Of a DNA stretch of 64,000 nt, positions 17,345-31,145 are shown piece after piece. The translations under genes were made by a program, and so were the position numbers. The DNA lies in NCBI GenBank assembly GCA_964518865.1, contig CAZFIB010000012.1, positions 2,736-66,735 of the forward strand, read 5' to 3'. Below the pieces are notes generated by a model. It searched no databases. It was not told the origin of the DNA and saw nothing but the letters and a program-made list of their open reading frames with translations. Each line of letters starts with the position of its first letter. Within the stretch, counting starts at the first letter, position 1. Source of the DNA: an uncultured Thermodesulfobacteriota bacterium. GTDB lineage: Bacteria; Desulfobacterota; WTBG01; CAIYCZ01; CAIRTM01.

Positions 17345-18673
17345 CTATTTATAGGTCGCCCTCACCGGGTCGTGCATCATTGATTCGCCCGAGGAATCGA
17401 TATCCTCGAGCCTGTACCAGTTCGTCCACCACCGTGCGGACTCATCCACGAACTCATACGCCGCCCCGCCGGTCGGTGAGCCCCTGGCGGGAATAAGGGC
17501 TTCATTGACACGCACATAACGGCCGCGCTGAAAGGCGCAGCGGTATATGTTGAAACCGGCGCTGTCGACCTCCGAAGCCGTTGTCCAGCTGATTGCAACG
17601 TGCTTAAACCCGCGGCGCTCGGCAGACAGTGATGAGAGCTCTACGAGGGTAGATGATCCTGCACCGCGGACCGCCCGCACATAGTGCAGAGCGCTTTTAC
17701 CGCTGCCGAAGTAAAAATCCACATACCCGAGATCGAAGTCGACAACCCAGGCCCTGTCGGTATAGCCCCCGGGGATGCTGGTTGATGTGCGGTAGGATGC
17801 GGCTACGGCTGCAGGAAAAAAATCGGTGTCGATGCTTGGTCCGTATCTCGTGTAATCGACAAGGGACTGCAGCTCGTTGACATTGGGAAGGCGCCAGTCG
17901 CTGTAACCGGCAAGTTCCAGGTTCTCGCAGTAGGCGAGGGCTTCCTGCCAGTCCATGGTCTGCGCAGGCCCTGCCTGCTGCCACATAAGCCCGGTGCCCT
18001 GATCACTGACTGTTCCGTCGCCGTTATCGACAAACATACCGCGTTGTGCGATATCACCGCGCACCGCCATGGCGCCGTCACCGTCTTTAATAAAATTGTA
18101 CTCATAGCCTGTGAAAAACTGCACATAATAAGGGCCCAGCGCTGCTGACGGGTCCGGGGTCGCGGTCCAGTAGTAAAGTGCAACGAGGGGGAAATAATCG
18201 GTATCGACTGCCGGGTCGATGGTGCCGCGGTCGATCAGGTATGACAGCTCGTGAATTTCCGGGAGGCGCCAGTCGCTACAGCCGCCGAACGCGGCCTGGT
18301 TGAGCGCAGGAATAAAAATATCCCGGGCATCATTCCAGCTGTAACTGTTTTCGAAATCGTGGATCGAGCCGTCATCGGTCTTGACTTCCCAGGTCAGGCC
18401 CGTAACCGTGTCGCGGACCATGGCCCAGGATTCCGCAGTATCGGGAAGCGGCAGGCCGCTGCCGTCCAGCTTTATATATTCACGGCTGCCGGTGTCATAC
18501 TGGGCATCCTGACCGTAGAAGGGCTCCCCGGGTGCAGGGCATGCGATTTCCGCAGTATTGTCGTAACAGGCTGTCTGTCCTGTGTCGGGCACGTGACCGC
18601 CTAAAGCCGGCTGGCAGGTAAAAAGCAGCACTACGTGCAAAAAAATACCTGATATTGCAACATATTTATTCAT
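17345..18673 (-). CDS. Secreted DUF1566 (Lcl C-terminal-like) protein with a C-terminal Ig/Fn3-like module
   Basis: Signal peptide, PDTGQTACY, two blocks ending DWRLP, C-terminal TLVELSSLSA..WTTASEVDSAGFNIYR. Start MNKY at 18673. Confidence 0.85.
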   Translation of the reverse strand: MNKYVAISGIFLHVVLLFTCQPALGGHVPDTGQTACYDNTAEIACPAPGEPFYGQDAQYDTGSREYIKLDGSGLPLPDTAESWAMVRDTVTGLTWEVKTDDGSIHDFENSYSWNDARDIFIPALNQAAFGGCSDWRLPEIHELSYLIDRGTIDPAVDTDYFPLVALYYWTATPDPSAALGPYYVQFFTGYEYNFIKDGDGAMAVRGDIAQRGMFVDNGDGTVSDQGTGLMWQQAGPAQTMDWQEALAYCENLELAGYSDWRLPNVNELQSLVDYTRYGPSIDTDFFPAAVAASYRTSTSIPGGYTDRAWVVDFDLGYVDFYFGSGKSALHYVRAVRGAGSSTLVELSSLSAERRGFKHVAISWTTASEVDSAGFNIYRCAFQRGRYVRVNEALIPARGSPTGGAAYEFVDESARWWTNWYRLEDIDSSGESMMHDPVRATYK

Positions 18674-18813
18674 TTTATCTTTACCTTGAGAAAGGTGACC
18701 ATGTTTTTCACTCATAATTATTATAGTACGTGCTGATTCCGGGCTCGTCAATGAACAAAACAAACAATTAGTATTTATTGCTTTTTCCGTCATGCTTTTC
18801 GGTGTGGAGCATA

Positions 18814-18850
18814 GAAAAAGCACCCGTCCTGCCAGGACGGGTGCTTTTCT
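18814..18850. terminator. Rho-independent terminator (bidirectional type)
   Basis: aaaaagcacccgtcct-gcc-aggacgggtgcttttct downstream of the 18881 gene. Confidence 0.8.
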
Positions 18851-18880
18851 GCTGCGTTCGAAACTGTTCAGCTGTCAGCC

Positions 18881-21007
18881 TCAGTCAATCGCCTTTGCGA
18901 TTCCTGAAAGCAGTTTTGCGGCGGTCCAGCGCAGAAAGGGGCTTTCCTCCAGCATTCCGCGCAGGTGCGGGCTTGCACGGTAGTAGGCTTTAATCAGGAT
19001 TCTCCCGAACCGAATCCGGGACAGCTTTTCATCGCGGAAGCGGCGGAACGTTTCAACTTCCTCCTCAGAGAGAACAAGCGCGAACGGGCAGGCGGAGGCC
19101 TCGTGAACCGTTACCTCGATTGTGCCGGTGCCTGTCAGGCCACCGCTGTCTATGACTTCCAGTGTTGCCGTGTACAGGTCCGCACTCTCAAAACGATGAA
19201 ACGATATCGGGTCGCCGTCAAATGATGTGTCCCACGAACCGTCGCTTTCAAAGTCCCATCTGAACTCGAGGCTTTCGATCGGATCTTCAGGATCGGAAGA
19301 GTCAAACGCCATGAACTCGAATTCGGTCTGGGTGTCACCCTCCGGCGGATGCACCAGAGCGACAGCTGTCGGCGGATTGTTTGTGCCGCCTGCAGGTGCT
19401 GTAGTCGTTGTCGTAGTGGTGCTGCCGGAAACTGTTGTCGTAGTGCTGCTGCCCGCTGCGGCACTGACCACCACCTGCTGGTCGGTCTGGTCGGTCAAGC
19501 CGCCCTGGTCGATAACTTCCAGGGTGACCGTATAGGTGCCGGCAGCGGTATAGTTCCACGTTTCGGTTTTAGTCGTTGAAAAGCCCGTATCCCACATGCC
19601 GTCACCGTCAAAGTCCCAGATGACCTTCAGTGCCGACACCGCATCCTCGGCATCCGTGCAGCCTGAGGCATCAAAAGAAAACATAGTTGTCGTATCACCG
19701 GAAGACGGGCTTACGGTGAACACGGCCGTCGGGTTCGTGTTGCCGGTGGTCGGTGAGACGACAATTACCTGCTGGGATGCCTGGTCGGTAAGCCCTCCGG
19801 TATCCTCAACTTCGATGGTTATCGTATAGGTGCCGTCCCCCGTGTACTGATGATCGATATCCTTGTCGGCCGTGATCTGGTCGTCCCAGGCACCGTCGGT
19901 TTCCCAGTCGATACGTACGATCAGCGCGGCGATCGGATCTTCGGCATCAGCGCTTGCAAACGGCTCGAGGTGAAAGGTCTGCGACGTGTCACCCGCTGGC
20001 GGTGTTACGGTAAAGGCGGCTGACGGTGCAGTATTGGCGGCAGCGGACGTTGTTGTCGAGGACGCGGCTGTTGTGGTTGTGGTGCTCGCCGCCACACCGT
20101 CATAGCGCAGCAGCGTACCGCTTGTTCCACCGGCGAACACATTGCTTGACGATGTTCCCCAGACGCTGAACAGCCCGAAATAGGTGCCGCTGGTCATTGT
20201 CGACCATGAGGTGCCGTCGTAATGTAGAATCGTGCCCTGATCGCCGACCGCAAAAACATCGTTAGACGCCGTGCCCCACACATCTCTGAGGGTGTTGGTT
20301 GTGGGATTGGTCATGACGCTCCAGCCGGTGCCGTCATAGTGAACGATGTCGCCGCCGACCGCGAAGATATCTGTTGCCGATGAGCCCCACACAGCTTCAA
20401 GAAAACTGGTTGTAGGGCTGGTCATTGCCGACCACGAGGTGCCGTTATAATGAAGAATCGTACCGGAATCCCCAACCGCATATACGTCGTTAGCCCCTGT
20501 GCCCCACACCCCGTAAATCGTATCCGTGCTGCCGCTCGTCATGGCACTCCAGCTCGATCCAATGCTGTGAACGATCTCACCGCTGTAGCCGACGGCAAAA
20601 ATATCACTCGCGGATGAGCCCCACACATCGATCATCCAGCTGTTGATACCGCTCGAAGTTGCGGTCCAGCCGGTGCCGTCGTAGTGCGAAACGCTGCCCG
20701 AGCTTCCGAGCCCGCCCCCTGCGATATAGATATCCGAAGCAGATGAGCCCCAGATGCCCCTGAGGGTACTGGCCCCTGCAATACCGCTTACCGACACGGA
20801 CCAGGCCGATCCGTTGTAGTGCAGAACACCGCCGCCCCCGGAAGAGTCATCAAGGGTGGCGTGGATGTCAGATGCAGAGCTGCCCCAGATGCTTTGAATG
20901 GAGTAAGACGTTCCTGAGCTCACAGCGCTCCACCCGGCAAAAGCTTGGGTCGATGTTACGACCGCAACTAAAATACACGTTGTAAAAACCAGTTGTAAAT
21001 GCCTCAT
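18881..21007 (-). CDS. Secreted beta-propeller repeat protein with 3 PKD domains and a CFI-box-CTERM-like tail
   Basis: Seven WG(S/T) repeats, Thr-rich linkers, WDFDGDG/WDFESDG PKD motifs, tail CPFAL..FRRFRD..GRILIKAYYRASP. Confidence 0.85.
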   Translation of the reverse strand: MRHLQLVFTTCILVAVVTSTQAFAGWSAVSSGTSYSIQSIWGSSASDIHATLDDSSGGGGVLHYNGSAWSVSVSGIAGASTLRGIWGSSASDIYIAGGGLGSSGSVSHYDGTGWTATSSGINSWMIDVWGSSASDIFAVGYSGEIVHSIGSSWSAMTSGSTDTIYGVWGTGANDVYAVGDSGTILHYNGTSWSAMTSPTTSFLEAVWGSSATDIFAVGGDIVHYDGTGWSVMTNPTTNTLRDVWGTASNDVFAVGDQGTILHYDGTSWSTMTSGTYFGLFSVWGTSSSNVFAGGTSGTLLRYDGVAASTTTTTAASSTTTSAAANTAPSAAFTVTPPAGDTSQTFHLEPFASADAEDPIAALIVRIDWETDGAWDDQITADKDIDHQYTGDGTYTITIEVEDTGGLTDQASQQVIVVSPTTGNTNPTAVFTVSPSSGDTTTMFSFDASGCTDAEDAVSALKVIWDFDGDGMWDTGFSTTKTETWNYTAAGTYTVTLEVIDQGGLTDQTDQQVVVSAAAGSSTTTTVSGSTTTTTTTAPAGGTNNPPTAVALVHPPEGDTQTEFEFMAFDSSDPEDPIESLEFRWDFESDGSWDTSFDGDPISFHRFESADLYTATLEVIDSGGLTGTGTIEVTVHEASACPFALVLSEEEVETFRRFRDEKLSRIRFGRILIKAYYRASPHLRGMLEESPFLRWTAAKLLSGIAKAID

Positions 21008-21142: not shown

Positions 21143-21191
21143 TTGACATTGCTGCCGGGATAGCCTATATGTGGACATGAATCCATATTCA
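21143..21191 (+). promoter_or_regulatory. Sigma70-like promoter with a putative TetR operator
   Basis: TTGACA-17-TATATG, then palindrome TGAAT-ccat-ATTCA (21178-21191) before tetR. Confidence 0.5.
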
Positions 21192-21207
21192 AAAAACCTC
21201 GTGCTGC

Positions 21208-21834
21208 ATGACTTCGCGCCGGACAACGAAAAAAAAAATCATTCTGGATGCCGCCCTCAAGGTTTTCGCGGACAAGGGTTATCACTATGCAACCATAGGC
21301 GACATTGCCAGAGAGGCCGGCATTGCCAAGGGATCGGTGCATGTTTATTTCGAAAGCAAGCTCGACGTTCTTCTCTCGATCATACTCCTGTTCTGGCAGT
21401 CGATAAACGAAGCCAACCGTAACAAGCTGAACGACGATAAAAATCCCCTTGAAACGCTCAAGGAACTTTTCAGCACGTTTCAGGACATGCTGCTGCATGA
21501 TGTCCAGTCGCTGTACTGGGCAAAAATACTCAGGGAGGGTCTGCCGAAACTGCACGACATCAAGAGCGAGCAGCTCCGTAACAAACAGGCCGACATCGAG
21601 CGCGAGCGCAAAAAACTGATGGAAACAATCGACGCGGTCATTCGCAAAGGACAACGGCAGGGCCTGATCAAGAAAAACATCAAGCACCAGGCGCTCCGGC
21701 AGATTCTGGGCGGCTCCAGTCAGCTGCTGGTATACGGTTTGTTTATGCATCTGAATGAGTCAAAAGGCATCGGCTACCGGGAAAAAGATGTCAGGGATTC
21801 CATGAGTATTTTAATCGACAGTTTTTCAGCATAA
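21208..21834 (+). CDS. TetR/AcrR family regulator
   Basis: ILDAALKVFADKGYHYATIGDIAREAGIAKGSVHVYFESK helix-turn-helix. Confidence 0.95.
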   Translation: MTSRRTTKKKIILDAALKVFADKGYHYATIGDIAREAGIAKGSVHVYFESKLDVLLSIILLFWQSINEANRNKLNDDKNPLETLKELFSTFQDMLLHDVQSLYWAKILREGLPKLHDIKSEQLRNKQADIERERKKLMETIDAVIRKGQRQGLIKKNIKHQALRQILGGSSQLLVYGLFMHLNESKGIGYREKDVRDSMSILIDSFSA

Positions 21835-21872
21835 CGAATGTATTGACAACACAACCAGAAAAGGAGGGAAAC

Positions 21873-22352
21873 ATGGAAAAGGCTGTAGGCAAGGAAATGC
21901 CCTGGGAACAGCAGCGGCAGATTCTGATTGAAACCGCGGCGCTGAAGCTTCCGATGCTGTATCAGTCGCTTGTGGGTCTGTACGGCGAGGAAAAGGGCAG
22001 GAAGATCTATGACGAGCTGTTTGAGGAAAACTTCAAAAAAAGATCGGCCCGTTTTGCCGATAAAGACATCGGCGACATCATGATGGCGGAGATCGACATG
22101 TTTCCGGCAATGGGATGGAAGCTCTGGGTGGAAAAAAAGGAGGCTGACGGCGAAACCGCATGGTTTGAGCATCTCGAAAAATGCCCCCACCTTGAAGCGA
22201 CCAGAAAGTATAAGCTGCCCGACCCCTGCCCGCTCATCTGCGACATGGACTGTGTCATGGGCGAAAAGTACAGGATCGCGCGGTGGGAGCGTCTGAAACA
22301 TATGCCGGCGGGTGATTCCGAATGCTGTTTCAAGATTACCCGATGCAAATAA
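21873..22352 (+). CDS. ATC-hydrolase / V4R-like ligand-binding protein
   Basis: KCPHLEA..PCPLICDMD..HMPAGDSECCFKI Cys pattern; SD AGGAGG before ATG 21873. Confidence 0.7.
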   Translation: MEKAVGKEMPWEQQRQILIETAALKLPMLYQSLVGLYGEEKGRKIYDELFEENFKKRSARFADKDIGDIMMAEIDMFPAMGWKLWVEKKEADGETAWFEHLEKCPHLEATRKYKLPDPCPLICDMDCVMGEKYRIARWERLKHMPAGDSECCFKITRCK

Positions 22353-22387
22353 CACAACACCGACATTCACCGGAAGGAGGATTTTCC

Positions 22388-23185
22388 ATGATGAACAGCA
22401 CAAAAAAAAGTCGAAAGAGTTTTTTTCTGACAACAGCGGTTATGCTGTGTGCAGCACTGCTGGTGTGCAGTCCGGCAGCGGCACAGACCCTTGATTTTAT
22501 CGGCAGCGCCAAGCAGAGCCTCAGCACATTCATGCAGGAAACCGTTCCGTTCGATGAAAAGTATGAGCACTACGAGGGTGACGGCGGTTCGATCGACCTT
22601 GAGGTATACACGGCGGATAAAATCGAAAAAATCGTTTTTTCTTCCATCCAGATCGAGGAGACCAACGTCTCGGAAGAGTCCGTCTTTATCTATCCTGCTG
22701 AAGGGTATGAATTTCCGGTGTTCTGGGCAAACATGACGCGCTTTGGCATTATGACGATTTTTATTTTCGACTTCCTGCCCCTGCAGGACCTTATCATGTC
22801 CCCGGAATACGGCGAGCAGTACATTCAGCCGCTCAAAACGACCAAGGATACGGTTACGGGTGATATCCTGAAGAACAAAATTCGGGACAAATCGCTTGAG
22901 CTCGACAGCCTGGCGATGTATGTCTATTCACCCTACAGGATGGTCGTCATGGTTTCATTCTTAGGAGCGCTGAAGGTAGCGGAAGTGGTCGATGCCTATG
23001 CCCAGAGCTACATCTCCCTGTGCAACGCAGCCCAGGAACTGCCCGACGGCGATGCCAGGGACTATGCAACCGACAAGCTGGCGGCGCTGCGGAATCTTCT
23101 CAAGGAGAATGACCCGGGCTATCCGATTATGGTGGAGACGTTCGGCGAGGCCGCCACGCTGGAAATCATGGAAGTCATTTTCTGA
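22388..23185 (+). CDS. Signal-peptide-bearing protein with a ferredoxin-dependent bilin reductase / RCCR-like fold
   Basis: Sec signal ending PAAA-Q; FIYPAEGYEFPVF, FDFLPLQD, YSPY, NDPG..FG..IF motifs. Confidence 0.6.
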   Translation: MMNSTKKSRKSFFLTTAVMLCAALLVCSPAAAQTLDFIGSAKQSLSTFMQETVPFDEKYEHYEGDGGSIDLEVYTADKIEKIVFSSIQIEETNVSEESVFIYPAEGYEFPVFWANMTRFGIMTIFIFDFLPLQDLIMSPEYGEQYIQPLKTTKDTVTGDILKNKIRDKSLELDSLAMYVYSPYRMVVMVSFLGALKVAEVVDAYAQSYISLCNAAQELPDGDARDYATDKLAALRNLLKENDPGYPIMVETFGEAATLEIMEVIF

Positions 23186-23215
23186 CGACGGTTAATCCAG
23201 TAAGCGATTTTTTTG

Positions 23216-23252
23216 AAGGACGGCCGCGGGAGTTTCCCCGGCCGTCCTTTTT
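23216..23252 (+). terminator. Rho-independent terminator
   Basis: aaggacggccg..cggccgtcc followed by a T-tract. Confidence 0.75.
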
Positions 23253-23545
23253 AGTGGTACGCCCGGACGAAGCCGGATCCTGCGGTAGCGCCGCGGCTTG
23301 ATGGTACGGGATTTATTCAGTATCCCCTGCGCGTGGTTTTCAGTGATTACATTTATACTATAAGTCTGTTTTTCCGCAGGTCAAGCTTACCCCCTGCCCG
23401 CTTTTCCGGCAGCAAAAAAAATCATCCTGCCCACTTGACTTCGAAAAAACCGTTTTTATTATTCGAGAAGAAACGTACACCAAACAACAAACGAACTACG
23501 GAAACATAGGGTACACATCAAAACAGCAGGATACGGAAAGGAGGC

Positions 23546-24004
23546 ATGGCTATGCAGGTACGATGGTATGACGGCTTTATGCCCACGTATAACGATTTTT
23601 TCAGACTGCGGGACGAGCTGGACCAGATATTCGACATAGGGCTTCCGCTGTCGAATATTCGCAGCGTTCCGCGGGGAACCTTCCCTGCAATCAACATGCA
23701 GGAAGCCCAGGATGCGGTCAGCATTCAGGCGCATCTTCCCGGCATCGACCCGAACGAAATCAAGCTTTCGATTGAAAACAACACGCTTTCCATTGCCGGA
23801 ACCCGCGAAACCGCTGCCGCCGATGTAAAAACCAATTATCACCGTCGGGAGCGTTACAGCGGCCCGTTTTCAAGAATCATAAGCCTGCCGGAGGGGCTCG
23901 ATGCCGAAAAGGTCGAAGCACACTATCGTGACGGTATTTTGAACATCAGCATCGCAAAAGCCGAGGAAAAGAAACCGAAACAGATCAGTGTTTCAGTAGG
24001 ATAA
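23546..24004 (+). CDS. Hsp20/alpha-crystallin small heat-shock protein
   Basis: FPAINM, LPGID, RRERYSGPFSR, YRDGILNISI. Confidence 0.95.
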   Translation: MAMQVRWYDGFMPTYNDFFRLRDELDQIFDIGLPLSNIRSVPRGTFPAINMQEAQDAVSIQAHLPGIDPNEIKLSIENNTLSIAGTRETAAADVKTNYHRRERYSGPFSRIISLPEGLDAEKVEAHYRDGILNISIAKAEEKKPKQISVSVG

Positions 24005-24020
24005 GAAAGGAGGGACAGCC

Positions 24021-24416
24021 ATGGCTGATAAAAACGTCCAATCGGTCGCACGAACCGAAAAATCCGATCCGGCGGAAATCGCCCGCGATGCCCTGGTCCC
24101 CCCGGTCGACATTTACGAGGATCAGGACAGTGTGACGCTTCTTGCCGATCTGCCCGGTGTTGCAAAGGACGGTCTGGATGTGCATATCGACAAAGACACC
24201 CTGCAGATCTCCGGCAGCCGCACGGCGGTCGACAGCGGGCAGGTGAAAAATCAGTATACCGAGTTCCCGATGAAAGACTACTATCGCGCATTTACCATCG
24301 GCGATGAAATCGATCGCGATAAGATATCGGCTCAGATGAACAGCGGTGTTTTGAAAGTCGTACTGCCGAAGGCTGAAAAAGCAAAACCGAAAAAAATAAA
24401 CATTAAAATTTCCTGA
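24021..24416 (+). CDS. Hsp20 small heat-shock protein
   Basis: PPVDIYE, ADLPGV, GVLKVVLPKAE. Confidence 0.95.
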   Translation: MADKNVQSVARTEKSDPAEIARDALVPPVDIYEDQDSVTLLADLPGVAKDGLDVHIDKDTLQISGSRTAVDSGQVKNQYTEFPMKDYYRAFTIGDEIDRDKISAQMNSGVLKVVLPKAEKAKPKKINIKIS

Positions 24417-24481
24417 AACCGAACACGCTCGGCAGGCTGTGTGCAAACAGCCTGCCGAAAGACACAAGGGGGGTGAAAACC

Positions 24482-24958
24482 GTGTCTCTGACGCTGTGGA
24501 AAGACAAAAGCCCGGCACATCTGCTTGACGATCTCAAAGGCCAGCTCGACCGCTGGTTCGGCGAGTACTTTTCAAAAAACAAGGAGGCTGTCCCGCAAGA
24601 AAGCATCTTCAGCGAGCGCGGTTCGCTGCTGCGCTTCCCTGCGGTCGACATCGAGGAGCGTGATGACAAATACATCGTGCATGCCGAGATACCGGGCATG
24701 AAAAAGGATGAAATCGATGTGCAGTATCACGACGGTTACCTGACGATACGCGGAGAAAAAAAGTTCGAACACGAAGAGAAGAAGAAAGATTTCCACCGCA
24801 TCGAGCGCTCCTACGGCAGCTTCCACCGCACGTTTGAAATCCCGGAGGATATACGCGAAGACGCGATAACCGGTGAGTACAGAAACGGAGTGCTTGAAAT
24901 CAAGCTTCCCCTGCAGTCTCCGGAGAAGCGGCGGGTAAGAAAAATACAAATCGACTAA
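24482..24958 (+). CDS. Hsp20 small heat-shock protein
   Basis: PAVDIEE, AEIPG, IERSYGSFHR, YRNGVLEIKLP. GTG start at 24482 or 24473. Confidence 0.93.
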   Translation: MSLTLWKDKSPAHLLDDLKGQLDRWFGEYFSKNKEAVPQESIFSERGSLLRFPAVDIEERDDKYIVHAEIPGMKKDEIDVQYHDGYLTIRGEKKFEHEEKKKDFHRIERSYGSFHRTFEIPEDIREDAITGEYRNGVLEIKLPLQSPEKRRVRKIQID

Positions 24959-28682: not shown

Positions 28683-31145
28683 TCAGCCAAGCCTGCGCTC
28701 GATGAGCGGCAGGATTTTTACAAGTATGCGTCGCAGCGCGCGCTGAACAAACGGCGAGTCTTCCAGCATGGCCTTCACGCGGGGGGCCGTGCGGTAGTAT
28801 GCTCTGATCAGCAGCTTTCCCGGTTTTGTCTTTATAAGCTTTTCATCGCGGAAGCGCCGCAGTATCTCCAGTTCGTCCTCAGCGAGCAGCAGTGCGAACG
28901 GGCACCAGCCCTCCGGCTCGAACACCAGCAGCTCGACCGTGTCCTGGCCGGTCAGCCCCCCGGTGTCCATTACCTCGAGGGTTACCGTGTAGAGGTCGGG
29001 AGCATCGTAGCGGTGAAATACGGTGGGCTCGCCCGCATATTCAGTATCCCAGGTGCCGTCTGATTCGAAATCCCAGCGGGCAACAAGGCTTTCCAGCGGG
29101 TCCTCGGCATCACTTGAATCGACGGCAAAAAACTCGAACTCGGTGTCGACGTCACCCTCGGGCGGCTCGATACGGGCAACAGCCGCCGGGGCGGTATTGC
29201 CGCCCGCAGAAACCGTGCTGGTCGTCGTGCCGCCCCCGGAAGCCGTCGTGGTCGTGGAGGAGGCGCTGCCGGTCACGACCACCTGCTGGGTGGCGACATC
29301 ATACAGGCCGCCCGAATCGATAACCACAAGCTCCGCATCATAGGTGCCTGCCGCCGGATACTGGTGCGTTGCGGTCTTCGCGGTGCTGAACTGCGTATCG
29401 AACATGCCGTCGCCGTCAAAGTCCCACATGACCTCCAGTGCGGATGCGCTGTCCTCGGCATCGCTGCACCCCGAGGCGTCGAAGGTGAACGTCGTTGCGG
29501 TGTCGCCGGATGAAGGGCTCACGCTAAAGGAGGCCGCCGGGTCGGTGTTGCCGCCGGCAGCAGACACGACCTTTACCTGCTGGGTTGCCTGGTCGGTGAG
29601 CCCCCCGGTGTCCTCCACCTCGATCGTAATGGTGTAGGTGCCGTCAGTCAGGTAGGTGTGGCTTGCCGTGGTGTCTGCGGCTATCGTGTCGTCCCAGGCA
29701 CCGTCGGTTTCCCAGTCGATCGTTACATTCAGGGCGGCAACGGGGTCTTCGGCGTCGGAGCTTGCAAAGGGCTCGAGCACGAAGGCGGTCGAGGTGTCTC
29801 CCACGGTCGGGCTGACGCTGAACGCGGCTGTGGGCGCGGTGTTGCCCGCAGGCGCGCTTGTGGTGGTCGTGGAGCCCCCGGGCGCGGTGGTCGTGGTTGA
29901 GGATGCTGAAGAGAACCCAAAAAGAGATCCGTTAACAACATCCGATCCTGCGGCAGAATCCGTCTGTGTTTGAAGACATGTTCCGCTTGCGGCGCACGCA
30001 AGATCGTAAAGGAGTTCCACCGATGCAGTATTTGTGCTGATCGAGAGGGGGTTTGCGGTGATACCGGCAGCCCCTTCGGGCACATACTGTCCCCAGGTGT
30101 CCCAGTTGTTGCTGCTGCTGCTCCAAACCACCAGATAGCCGAAATCCGGGATTTTTGCTGCCTGCGGATAGCGGTCATACGCATTTGCAATGTCGCCGAT
30201 ACTGAGTGTGCTCGTCCCCAGCGTTCCGTCACCATCTGCCAGCCGCCCTTTTATCTGATCGGGCGTCAGGTTTGCACCGTCTTCCCACACAACCAGGAAT
30301 TCATCGTCACCAGCCGCTATCTTCGGCTGTCCCTGATGTCTGGTATCCGAGACGATTTTGATTTCGCTGATTGCGGTTGTTCCTGAGAGGTTCGCCGGCA
30401 ACAGCTTGCCGTAGATGTCGGATATATAGGTGGTCGGATCCGAGTGTTCATAAACTACCAGGTATTCATTGCGGTCGGCATTATATGCAACATCGACCCA
30501 GGACCGGTCCATACTGTCTCCCCCGCTGTCCCAGCCGGTGGCGATGTTGACCAGACTATACAGGTTCAAATCGCCGGCTCGCACACGCCGTGCATACACA
30601 TCGGTCTCGAAACTTGTAGTATTTGACCGTTCCCAGCAAACCAGAAATTCATCGTCATTGCTGTTATAGGCAACCCGGGCGCCGCCGTAATTGTCGGAGG
30701 TGGAAGGGGCCTGTATTGTTTCGGTTTTTTCAACCGTACCGTCACTTTTGATCAGCGTTGCATAGATGGCGAAGTCTGTCTGATAGACAACCAGATATGT
30801 ATCCTGCTTTATACTGTAGGCGGCATCGGGGTAATCACTGTCAGCACTGCTTGATACGGCAATATCGATGGTGCTTCCGACGGCTGTGCCGTTGCTGTCG
30901 ACCAGTAGTGCTCGAATATCCTTATTGTTCGAAACCCCTGAAACATATTCGGTCCAGACAACAAGATACCCACCCGTTGTTGTGTTCGGGGCAACGGCAC
31001 CGTAGGTGCTTTTGTCGATTCCGTCACCCTTTACGATATCAACCTGCGTGAACGAAATCGAGGGGGTCTGTGCATAAGCCGCACACACATTTACCAAAAA
31101 ACAGAATGTAAAAACAGCGATGAGTTGAGACAGTTGCGCTTTCAT
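28683..31145 (-). CDS. Secreted repeat protein with 3 PKD domains and a CFI-box-CTERM-like tail (paralog of 18881-21007)
   Basis: Signal peptide; YLVVW/FLVVW repeats; PKD block and CPFALLL..LRRFRD..YYRTAP tail. Confidence 0.85.
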   Translation of the reverse strand: MKAQLSQLIAVFTFCFLVNVCAAYAQTPSISFTQVDIVKGDGIDKSTYGAVAPNTTTGGYLVVWTEYVSGVSNNKDIRALLVDSNGTAVGSTIDIAVSSSADSDYPDAAYSIKQDTYLVVYQTDFAIYATLIKSDGTVEKTETIQAPSTSDNYGGARVAYNSNDDEFLVCWERSNTTSFETDVYARRVRAGDLNLYSLVNIATGWDSGGDSMDRSWVDVAYNADRNEYLVVYEHSDPTTYISDIYGKLLPANLSGTTAISEIKIVSDTRHQGQPKIAAGDDEFLVVWEDGANLTPDQIKGRLADGDGTLGTSTLSIGDIANAYDRYPQAAKIPDFGYLVVWSSSSNNWDTWGQYVPEGAAGITANPLSISTNTASVELLYDLACAASGTCLQTQTDSAAGSDVVNGSLFGFSSASSTTTTAPGGSTTTTSAPAGNTAPTAAFSVSPTVGDTSTAFVLEPFASSDAEDPVAALNVTIDWETDGAWDDTIAADTTASHTYLTDGTYTITIEVEDTGGLTDQATQQVKVVSAAGGNTDPAASFSVSPSSGDTATTFTFDASGCSDAEDSASALEVMWDFDGDGMFDTQFSTAKTATHQYPAAGTYDAELVVIDSGGLYDVATQQVVVTGSASSTTTTASGGGTTTSTVSAGGNTAPAAVARIEPPEGDVDTEFEFFAVDSSDAEDPLESLVARWDFESDGTWDTEYAGEPTVFHRYDAPDLYTVTLEVMDTGGLTGQDTVELLVFEPEGWCPFALLLAEDELEILRRFRDEKLIKTKPGKLLIRAYYRTAPRVKAMLEDSPFVQRALRRILVKILPLIERRLG

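Follow-up and report, generated by a model that had tools for sequence, protein, structure and literature searches.

Organization of the locus

The stretch of DNA analysed here (the window, 64,000 nucleotides of contig CAZFIB010000012.1 from an uncultured Thermodesulfobacteriota bacterium) carries on its forward strand, at positions 21143-23254, a compact unit made of a promoter with a palindromic operator, tetR, a gene of the ATC_hydrolase family, a gene for a 265-residue protein and a terminator. The last protein, which is the subject of this report, is predicted to combine the fold of the ferredoxin-dependent bilin reductases (FDBRs) with an export signal. A preliminary description of this DNA had listed the same elements, the second gene being called Cys-rich and ATC-hydrolase/V4R-like, and each of them was found where it had been placed:

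21143..21171, + strand: sigma-70-type promoter, read from the sequence; −35 TTGACA at 21143-21148, 17-nucleotide spacer, −10 TATATG at 21166-21171
21169..21188, + strand: putative TetR operator overlapping the −10; imperfect 7-bp inverted repeat with a 6-nucleotide spacer, ATATGGA-N6-TCCATAT
21208..21834, + strand: tetR, 208 residues, FadR/YsiA-like subfamily; TetR_N E 2.5e-15
21873..22352, + strand: ATC_hydrolase-family gene, 159 residues, AAGGAGG ahead; PF14196 E 4.6e-13
22388..23185, + strand: gene for the 265-residue FDBR-fold protein, preceded by GGAAGGAGG; Fe_bilin_red match
22388..22483, + strand: signal peptide of this protein, residues 1-32, predicted cleavage AAA/Q
22484..23185, + strand: mature FDBR-fold domain (residues 33-265; PF05996) and stop codon
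23215..23254, + strand: intrinsic terminator, a hairpin (23215-23250) with a U run behind it

The second and third genes each have their own Shine-Dalgarno sequence. The intergenic gaps measure 38 and 35 nucleotides, and the terminator scan gave no forward-strand terminator in either of them. The consensus scan for promoters and terminators listed neither the forward-strand promoter, whose −10 ends in G, nor the forward-strand terminator; after the automatic scans had passed over both, the operator of this promoter was shown by alignment and the terminator by folding (−33.4 kcal/mol, z −5.66, with none of 200 shuffled sequences equally stable). The operator also gave nothing in an inverted-repeat search at seed 6, its left arm carrying a mismatch. 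Its 21-nucleotide core is identical in the window and in loci L002 and L021 of related genomes, where it again lies 5' of the orthologous tetR and where TTGACA is aligned at the equivalent position; the flanking DNA has diverged. Among all loci compared, the palindrome is confined to these three tetR promoters. The TetR_N helix-turn-helix and the position of the palindrome over the gene's own promoter point to a TetR-autoregulated operon of three genes.

The regulator itself has FadR as its best NCBIfam match, with 77.9 bits against a cut-off of 200. Its nearest solved relatives are the Bacillus subtilis FadR/YsiA structures 3whb and 1vi0 (E 5e-12, residues 7-171), proteins which bind acyl-CoA. 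Orthologues of 64-65% identity adjoin the exported copies in L002 and L021, and relatives of 42-48% identity adjoin FDBR clusters that are cytoplasmic. In the host's own genome (G000; 4.46 Mb in 202 contigs, completeness estimate 100) the operator search found one site of the exact class and one weaker site at C179:91. This weaker copy (G000:C179:64-3100) stands behind a TTGACA and 5' of an aldo-keto-reductase-like gene, named by eye, and it also precedes a gene for a 126-residue Cys-rich protein as well as one for an exported protein in which a CxxCH motif is present. These genes may belong to the regulon of the same TetR subfamily.

Fold of the 265-residue protein

The 265-residue protein matches the Pfam family Fe_bilin_red (PF05996) with an E-value of 4e-8 and 33.6 bits against a cut-off of 31, over positions 17-222 of the 228-position profile. 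A profile of 29 relatives (23 full-length members of the same clade, one N-terminally truncated fragment and five cytoplasmic sisters) was compared with the PDB and matched the tomato phytochromobilin synthase HY2 (6kmd) with an E-value of 2.1e-9; weaker matches were obtained with a PcyA-like chain, PebB, PebS, RCCR and PebA. The AlphaFold2 model, with a predicted local distance difference test score (pLDDT) of 88.8 and a predicted template-modelling score (pTM) of 0.83, comprises a lone helix (residues 7-26) joined by a linker of low confidence (27-33) to a compact domain that starts near residue 37. Among the PDB matches shown by Foldseek to rank 45 (E <= 0.001), all are FDBR, RCCR or PcyA-like chains, headed by RCCR 3agb at 1.1e-10; coproporphyrinogen oxidases come next at about 1e-3.

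The superposition by VIA-align, which spans residues 34/35-265 of the model, gives the same picture. The highest Z-scores are those of PebB (25.2; 2.3 A over 221 residues), PebA (24.1), HY2 (23.6), PcyA (23.3) and RCCR (22.7), with root-mean-square deviations of 2.3-2.8 A over 216-228 residues. The FDBR and RCCR entries as a whole range from 25.2 to 17.1; the coproporphyrinogen oxidases range from 16.8 to 11.7 (PcyX 5owg, at 16.8, lies within their range), and the first unrelated row has a Z-score of 5.1. In the ESM Atlas the best feature score, 0.85, is to FDBR clusters, under the lead level of 0.9. No NCBIfam FDBR equivalog cut-off is reached, the best being PebA NF009720 with 26.8 bits against 263. 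On profile and model evidence the protein is thus placed in the FDBR superfamily, with the full alpha/beta/alpha sandwich predicted as in FDBRs and RCCR. The bilin-reductase fold (PcyA/PebA/RCCR) that the preliminary description had proposed is borne out by the Pfam match, the PDB profile search and the AlphaFold model compared by Foldseek and VIA-align.

A conserved export signal

The N-terminus of the protein has the design of a signal peptide: an n-region with a charge of +4, a hydrophobic core (maximum 11-residue hydropathy 2.92) and a junction A-A-A/Q with small residues at −3 and −1. An extension of 31-37 residues of the same design is present in all 23 full-length orthologues, with a charge of +2 to +7, a hydropathy of 1.8-3.1 and a conserved Gln that small residues precede. 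The five cytoplasmic sisters, of 234-235 residues, all lack it and start five residues ahead of the first conserved motif; in the window protein the mature domain can be aligned to the solved FDBRs from residue 34/35. A lipoprotein was considered and rejected, as the protein has no lipobox (Cys27 follows L-L-V) and Cys27 is not conserved, and Tat export was rejected because no twin-arginine motif is present. By sequence criteria, residues 1-32 would form a Sec-type signal peptide and a substrate of signal peptidase I. The clear Sec signal claimed earlier therefore stands, with its n-h-c design in 23/23 full-length orthologues and in none of the five cytoplasmic sisters.

The exported mature domains are acidic. 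Their net charge ranges from −3 to −25 (16 of the 23 are at −15 or below) versus −3 to −11 in the cytoplasmic sisters, and such a surface is unfavourable for docking an acidic ferredoxin.

Paralogues and the cytoplasmic pathway

The window protein is not alone in its genome. An iterated hidden Markov model search found 15 FDBR-fold open reading frames, and a Pfam scan gave 12 genomic matches above its cut-off, the window gene being missed in the first pass of that scan. None of the other 14 paralogues reaches any NCBIfam FDBR equivalog cut-off (best 92.1 against 263), and the position of PcyA Asp105 is occupied in the 15 proteins by Asp (5), Asn (4), Glu (3) or other residues (3). The features of this genome that are needed below are the following:

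Contigs C10, C15, C18, C23, C58, C99, C104, C107, C108 and C191 (loci L061-L070): own-genome FDBR-fold paralogues
L061:7157-8137 = G000:C15:31154-32137, − strand: A-type ferredoxin-FDBR fusion; found also at L001:3567-4544 and in L004, L006, L007, L011, L014, L018 and L019
L061:484-6101 (C15) and L062:7102-13593 (C23): AmeABCD-like cassettes beside FDBR clusters

The closest paralogue, called B, is a cytoplasmic protein of 236 residues encoded on contig C15 and 40% identical to the window protein. Its gene adjoins that of A, a protein of 327 residues in which a 2x[4Fe-4S] ferredoxin domain is fused to an FDBR domain. Fusions of this type (326-333 residues) lie in each case directly upstream of a B-type gene. 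The residue at the PcyA-Asp105 position is Asp in A and Asn in both B and the exported protein. The operon on C15 is headed by a TetR of the same subfamily, 46% identical to that of the window, followed in order by AOR, SDR, a small membrane protein, FAD_binding_4, CCG/Fer4_8, A and B, and it abuts an MMPL(HAE3)-DUF1302-DUF1329 cassette. The cluster on C23 combines three FDBR-fold genes, a geranylgeranyl-reductase-like flavoprotein (FAD_binding_3) and a Ycf48/BNR-MMPL-DUF1302-DUF1329 cassette. Across 21 loci of related metagenome-assembled genomes the recurrent parts are MarR or TetR, SDR, ATC_hydrolase, A, B, FAD_binding_4 with CCG, and AOR. The unit had been described earlier as a module. 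It is not a stand-alone one but a satellite, the larger pathway to which it belongs having its genes at another place in the genome (C15), and its FDBR-fold gene is one of 15 paralogues.

The C15 pair of A and B was also submitted to complex prediction with alignments as input. The score was 0.57 (runs 0.58, 0.50 and 0.57), the best of three controls scoring 0.00, with a partner pLDDT of at least 88 and a contact agreement between runs of at least 96%. The calibration comprised 80 solved complexes, of which 58 reached the mark, and 110 mismatched pairs, of which 2 did; scores up to 0.60 came from only 7 of those 80 complexes and from both passing mismatches. This prediction weakly supports a contact between A and B and is taken as a lead, with no direct bearing on the exported protein.

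Two further paralogues, on C99 (L064:2364-3146) and C191 (L070:1618-2517), carry a hydrophobic segment at the N-terminus that may tether them to the membrane. Two genes away from the C99 copy is an AOR-family gene of 725 codons, with a Peptidase_C39-like gene in between. On C10, an MFS transporter with a C-terminal PCP_red domain (L066:7085-8689) is encoded about 2 kb from the top Fe_bilin_red paralogue (126.7 bits).

The FDBR-fold family has radiated in one class of the Thermodesulfobacteriota. Matches to PF05996 occur in 31 of 41 sampled genomes of this class, at 6-22 each, and by family in 15/16 genomes of f1, 4/4 of f2, 10/10 of f4 and 1/1 of f5, versus 0/8 of f3 and 0/1 of f6. When the phylum was sampled evenly (151 genomes at least 90% complete, E <= 1e-8), matches came from only five genomes, all from families f1 and f2 of the same class, and the other 146 gave none. 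The forms seen in this radiation are cytoplasmic, ferredoxin-fused, putatively membrane-tethered and, by prediction, lipoprotein and Sec-exported.

Descent of the exported form

A careful maximum-likelihood tree rooted on the A type places the exported clade (11 rows, support 100/98) next to a lipoprotein-type protein, P0033, with the lipobox LLGC (100/99), and both are nested in a B family that is otherwise devoid of signals. P0035 and L005 form a second exported lineage (100/99), whose nearest company is the cytoplasmic B encoded in the same cluster. At least two changes of the export state are required on the tree. According to this phylogeny, the exported protein is a young offshoot of the cytoplasmic B type, and the export state arose independently in the P0035/L005 lineage. 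The second exported B type (L005:5785-6603) closes an operon with DUF1302, DUF1329, FAD_binding_4 and CCG genes (L003/L005).

Of 42 genomes of the class searched, four, all from family f1, gave orthologues of the exported protein that are 62-65% identical and covered at the N-terminus. In a fifth, the reading is 42% identical and interrupted by five in-frame stops.

Linkage to tetR and to the ATC_hydrolase gene

The gene orders around the exported copies are as follows:

Window: tetR, ATC_hydrolase, exported gene
G001: MarR, SDR, A, B, ATC_hydrolase, exported gene
G008: ATC_hydrolase, exported gene; contig end
G013: tetR, exported gene, AOR
G002: tetR, degraded copy of the exported gene, AOR

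The co-occurrence with tetR and a V4R-like gene that the preliminary description had anticipated is seen here as a recurrent link to one TetR subfamily and to an ATC_hydrolase gene. Its reading had been staked on two points, and on both the finding is positive: the predicted structure is the FDBR sandwich, and homologues do carry the signal peptide and the V4R-like/TetR linkage. The tetR-linked copy of G002 (L021:6001-6805 = G002:C2:7363-8112) is split over two frames with five in-frame stops and is probably decaying.

The ATC_hydrolase protein is the best-conserved component of the unit, with 75-81% identity across four other loci and seven Cys and three His that are invariant. It scores 50.6 bits against a cut-off of 28.1 with PF14196 and has in addition a weak match to MetOD1. 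This match and the conserved Cys cluster assign it, by sequence, to the ATC_hydrolase/V4R/H-NOX superfamily. Galperin et al. (2018, PMC5847659) describe ATC_hydrolase as related to V4R, HNOB and MetOD1, with a Cys cluster common to the phenol-sensor domains of MopR and PoxR. The AlphaFold model, made from a 5-row alignment, is of low confidence (pLDDT 67, pTM 0.53) and has no Foldseek match at E <= 0.001, its weak rows (E 0.02-0.08, template-modelling scores 0.3-0.4) including DmpR, MopR, H-NOX and Bet3, and the protein has no PDB sequence match at E <= 10. The ATC_hydrolase protein has no signal peptide, its gene is single-copy in the host genome, and the same gene is found inside purely cytoplasmic clusters (L011, L019). 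From its single copy and its presence in such clusters, it probably serves the cytoplasmic pathway and not export.

The host genome

No heme oxygenase (PF01126) is found in the window, as noted in the preliminary description, nor in the whole genome. HutW/ChuW gives nothing above its cut-off in the genome (best 204 bits against 400). The phytochrome PHY domain (PF00360), the BchM domain and V4R matches above cut-off (PF02830) are absent from the genome as well, and so is any phycobiliprotein-like gene matching PF00502, a model which a BBAG globin might escape. A bacteriochlorophyll-type metabolism of the host was rejected on the absence of a BchM domain, and a class III cytochrome as periplasmic donor on a single marginal match. 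The host lacks a recognised endogenous source of linear tetrapyrroles and a biliprotein acceptor. The lack of heme oxygenase, BchM, PHY and phycobiliprotein matches agrees with the non-phototroph that had been proposed as host.

The stretch was matched in microbial-mat metagenome runs; these come from one study, possibly the DNA's own source, and are not independent. A metagenome scan for loci of the exported clade returned two short contigs only (1544 and 1130 bp), which show no gene context. Desulfobacterota classes bearing pigment genes have been described without mention of bilins (bioRxiv 10.1101/2021.03.22.436540).

The genes on either side of the unit are unrelated to it: those upstream encode secreted PKD-domain proteins, and downstream there are three Hsp20 genes together with a cupin and a GNAT gene. 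The unit is therefore self-contained in this genome. The Hsp20 genes, in tandem at 23546-24958 behind promoter-like sites, come immediately 3' of the unit. It is flanked at 17345-21007 and 28683-31145 by large secreted proteins that have PKD domains and by one that has an Lcl_C domain. The G+C content is 0.51-0.53 between 20001 and 26000, versus 0.49-0.65 (mostly 0.53-0.61) in 2-kb windows elsewhere in the stretch.

A proposed periplasmic carrier for a pigment-like substrate

We propose, with a probability of about 0.45, that the 265-residue protein is a periplasmic carrier which binds and hands over an exogenous pigment-like substrate. The product would be exported by the Sec pathway and its signal peptide removed after Ala32. 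The acidic mature protein of 233 residues would then work in the periplasm, where it would capture or hand over a hydrophobic, conjugated substrate of external origin. AmeABCD-like cassettes would move this substrate across the envelope, and the paralogous pathway (ferredoxin-fused A, B, SDR, AOR and the FAD/CCG oxidoreductase) would process it in the cytoplasm. We infer in this scheme export itself, the binding of TetR and an inducer for it, the class of the ligand, and a carrier rather than an enzyme.

By its fold, the protein most likely binds a linear tetrapyrrole or another tetrapyrrole-derived pigment from phototroph biomass; the main alternative, suggested by gene context, is an isoprenoid- or lipid-like ligand. 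If the family does bind tetrapyrroles, the lack of an endogenous bilin route implies that the ligands must come from outside, and an outside ligand fits the existence of an exported copy, the adjoining AmeABCD-like cassettes and the occurrence in mat metagenomes. Binding and hand-over are favoured over reduction because the exported copies are without A partner, without redox neighbour and more acidic; in the loci with an exported copy, no A-type partner or redox gene accompanies any of them. The combination of DUF1302, DUF1329, BNR and HAE3 is that of the AmeABCD hydrophobe transporter of Castellaniella defragrans, as described in PMC6394551, and the cofitness of DUF1302, DUF1329, BNR and RND genes has been noted (bioRxiv 10.1101/072470). 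By analogy, such cassettes offer a plausible setting in which the exported protein could work in the periplasm.

Several observations weigh against this proposal. The linkage is partial, as tetR adjoins the exported copy in three of four assessable loci and the ATC_hydrolase gene in three of five. The exported clade is present in only 4 of 42 class genomes and is therefore dispensable for the pathway. The exported clade has preserved every pocket residue that is invariant in the B family (Glu96, Ser/Thr98, Asn115, Asp128, Asp134 and Asp242), which is as compatible with an enzyme that has been retained as with a binding protein. Finally, the case that gene context makes for a substrate of lipid- or isoprenoid-like nature is about as strong as the one that the fold makes for a tetrapyrrole. 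The neighbours of the family include AOR, SDR, FAD_binding_4 with CCG, a geranylgeranyl-reductase-type FAD_binding_3 protein and MarR or TetR regulators; the TetR is FadR/YsiA-like; the cassettes beside the clusters are AmeABCD-like, of monoterpene type; and the C23 cluster contains a weak SCP2 match.

These last points, together with the phenol sensors MopR and PoxR among the ATC_hydrolase/V4R relatives (PMC5847659), could mean that the whole FDBR-fold radiation serves an anaerobic metabolism of lipid- or isoprenoid-like compounds, for instance a polyene alcohol, aldehyde or acid, of which the exported copy would be the periplasmic carrier. We consider this explanation somewhat doubtful. All members of the fold that have been characterised (FDBRs, RCCR and coproporphyrinogen oxidase) bind a tetrapyrrole according to the account given in PMC13446030, the C10 paralogue lies about 2 kb from the MFS transporter with a PCP_red domain, the paralogues on C23 and C108 have PNPOx-like genes as neighbours, and the likely habitat is a phototroph-rich mat (on the one non-independent study).

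Carrier or enzyme

The pocket of the protein bears on whether the proposed carrier could still be a reductase. The hidden Markov model alignment to HY2, read with Table 2 of PMC13446030, places Ser98 at the position of PcyA His88 and HY2 Asp116, Asn115 at that of PcyA Asp105 and HY2 Asn133, and Asp242 at that of HY2 Asp256, PebS Asp206 and PcyA Asp220. The spacing from Asn to Asp is 123 residues in HY2 and 127 in the window protein (Asn115-Asp242). Asn115, Asp242, Glu96, Asp128 and Asp134 are invariant in the 29 relatives and Ser98 nearly so; Glu96 precedes Ser98 by two residues on the same strand. The by-eye assignment of Ser and Asn to the PcyA His88 and Asp105 positions was right, and the protein differs in both from the canonical PcyA type.

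The loss of catalysis is only weakly suggested by these changes, because HY2 itself has Asn at the PcyA-Asp105 position (PMC13446030, Table 2), because the Asp that donates the A-ring proton is kept, and because pre-1 enzymes with Asn, Glu or Ser at the His88 and Asp105 sites are reported to reduce biliverdin (Frascogna et al. 2026, PMC13446030). Of the earlier suggestion of a possibly non-catalytic protein, the residue changes are confirmed and the loss of catalysis is not established, Asp242 and Glu96 being invariant. A tetrapyrrole or chlorophyll-catabolite ligand and a sensing role, proposed at the same time, are not established; as regards sensing, no signalling gene is present near the unit.

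The protein could also be a periplasmic reductase, in which a C=C bond would be reduced with single electrons from a low-potential carrier of the periplasm, such as a c-type cytochrome, and not from ferredoxin. In favour of this, FDBRs need no cofactor of their own. The polar pocket residues of the family are retained, including Asp242 (the proton-donor equivalent) and Glu96, the acidic surface could suit a basic cytochrome, and the precedents of HY2 and of the pre-1 enzymes active without His88 and Asp105 (PMC13446030) apply here too. This alternative is nevertheless unlikely. The exported copies have neither a cytochrome gene nor any other redox gene next to them, the only class III cytochrome match of the genome is marginal (23.9 bits against a cut-off of 22.9), Ser replaces the equivalent of HY2 Asp116, and no periplasmic FDBR appears in the published literature searched.

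It is very unlikely that the protein is not exported at all, its N-terminus anchoring a cytoplasmic domain or its true start codon lying downstream. The C99 and C191 paralogues, whose hydrophobic N-termini may tether a cytoplasmic domain, offer a precedent for the former. In the window gene, however, a strong ribosome-binding site stands 6 nucleotides ahead of the ATG at 22388, the only other Met before the conserved domain (from residue 36) is Met19, within the hydrophobic core, positive charges precede this core and a conserved small-x-small/Q site follows it in 23/23 orthologues, and the sister protein carries a classical lipobox. That the protein might be an ordinary biosynthetic FDBR supplying a chromophore, as the Pfam match and fold alone would allow, is highly improbable in view of its 26.8 bits against the 263-bit cut-off of the nearest NCBIfam equivalog, the absence from the genome of heme oxygenase, PHY domain and phycobiliprotein-like genes, the signal peptide, and the replacement of His88 by Ser and of Asp105 by Asn.

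Significance

To our knowledge, all characterised FDBR-fold proteins share the cytoplasm or plastid with ferredoxin, beside which they act, and come downstream of the oxygen-dependent cleavage of heme or chlorophyll. A broader extension of the carrier proposal, which we hold to be rather unlikely, is that a strictly anaerobic class has built an oxygen-independent FDBR-fold system for scavenging and reducing exogenous bilins or related pigments from the phototrophs of mats and sediments. On the same speculative footing, these pigments would serve as a source of carbon or iron or as an electron sink, and the window protein, as a periplasmic "bilinophore", would be the first representative of the fold outside the cytoplasm.

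Should the ligands be bilins, phototroph pigments would have an anaerobic fate that has gone unrecognised, and the protein would be the first of this fold to bind bilins in the periplasm; if the ligands are not tetrapyrroles, the ligand range of the FDBR fold would be wider. The mature protein is small and soluble and has a confidently predicted structure, which makes it an easy target for a binding screen and the question directly testable.

Comparison with known systems

In the published literature searched, no exported or periplasmic FDBR-fold protein and no radiation of FDBRs in the Thermodesulfobacteriota was found. Uncharacterised FDBR lineages are mentioned by Frascogna et al. (PMC13193486, PMC13446030), and some of the present sequences may already figure in published FDBR trees. 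An anaerobic radiation bears on the view, argued by Rockwell et al. in PMC10151467, that the known enzymes of the fold are all ultimately oxygen-dependent, and on the existence of earlier "archae-FDBR" enzymes, posed as a question in PMC13446030.

With the FDBRs (PcyA, PebA, PebB, PebS, HY2) and RCCR, the window protein shares profile homology and the predicted full-length sandwich, and with FDBRs also the C-terminal Asp-Pro motif, whose Asp corresponds to HY2 Asp256, and the Asn at the PcyA-Asp105 position as in HY2. It differs from them by its predicted Sec signal, by Ser at the His88/HY2-Asp116 position, by reaching no equivalog cut-off, by belonging to a set of 15 paralogues and by its host, an anaerobe without detected heme oxygenase or biliprotein gene. 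A functional FDBR shares a compartment with ferredoxin, and has a biliverdin source and a biliprotein acceptor in its genome; here a conserved predicted signal peptide separates the protein from the first, and the genome lacks the other two.

The pre-PcyA clusters (pre-1, pre-2, pre-3) are defined in Rockwell et al. (2023, PMC10151467) by a heme oxygenase, an Fe-S protein, a pair of V4R proteins and a BBAG globin. As these clusters are presented there and by Frascogna et al. (2026, PMC13446030), the resemblance lies in FDBR-fold genes of non-phototrophs with a neighbour of the V4R/H-NOX superfamily, in an Fe-S partner (here the ferredoxin domain fused to the paralogous A) and in non-canonical residues at His88 and Asp105. 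The preliminary description had mentioned V4R genes near FDBR homologues of non-phototrophs, and this is indeed in print for pre-1 and pre-3 clusters, which contain two V4R proteins (PMC10151467). In contrast, the window genome has neither heme oxygenase nor a PF00502 match, the unit has besides the FDBR-fold gene only tetR and one ATC_hydrolase-type gene instead of a V4R pair, the protein is predicted to be exported, and the neighbours of the family are AOR, SDR, FAD/CCG oxidoreductase and Ame-like genes.

The regulator resembles the FadR/YsiA-type repressors of B. subtilis, its best solved relatives over both TetR domains, and a palindromic operator overlaps its promoter, but it stays far under the equivalog cut-off. 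The same four-family cassette as AmeABCD of C. defragrans adjoins the host's own C15 and C23 FDBR clusters and the L003/L005 cluster; unlike the unit, it lies outside the window. The cytoplasmic relatives recall PebA and PebB, being encoded by adjacent genes, A and B, of the same fold, with Asp in A and Asn in B at the Asp105 position. Unlike PebA/PebB, A has a fused 2x[4Fe-4S] ferredoxin domain and the exported copy has no A partner. The pairing of A and B suggests, by analogy with PebA and PebB, two proteins acting in sequence or in cooperation.

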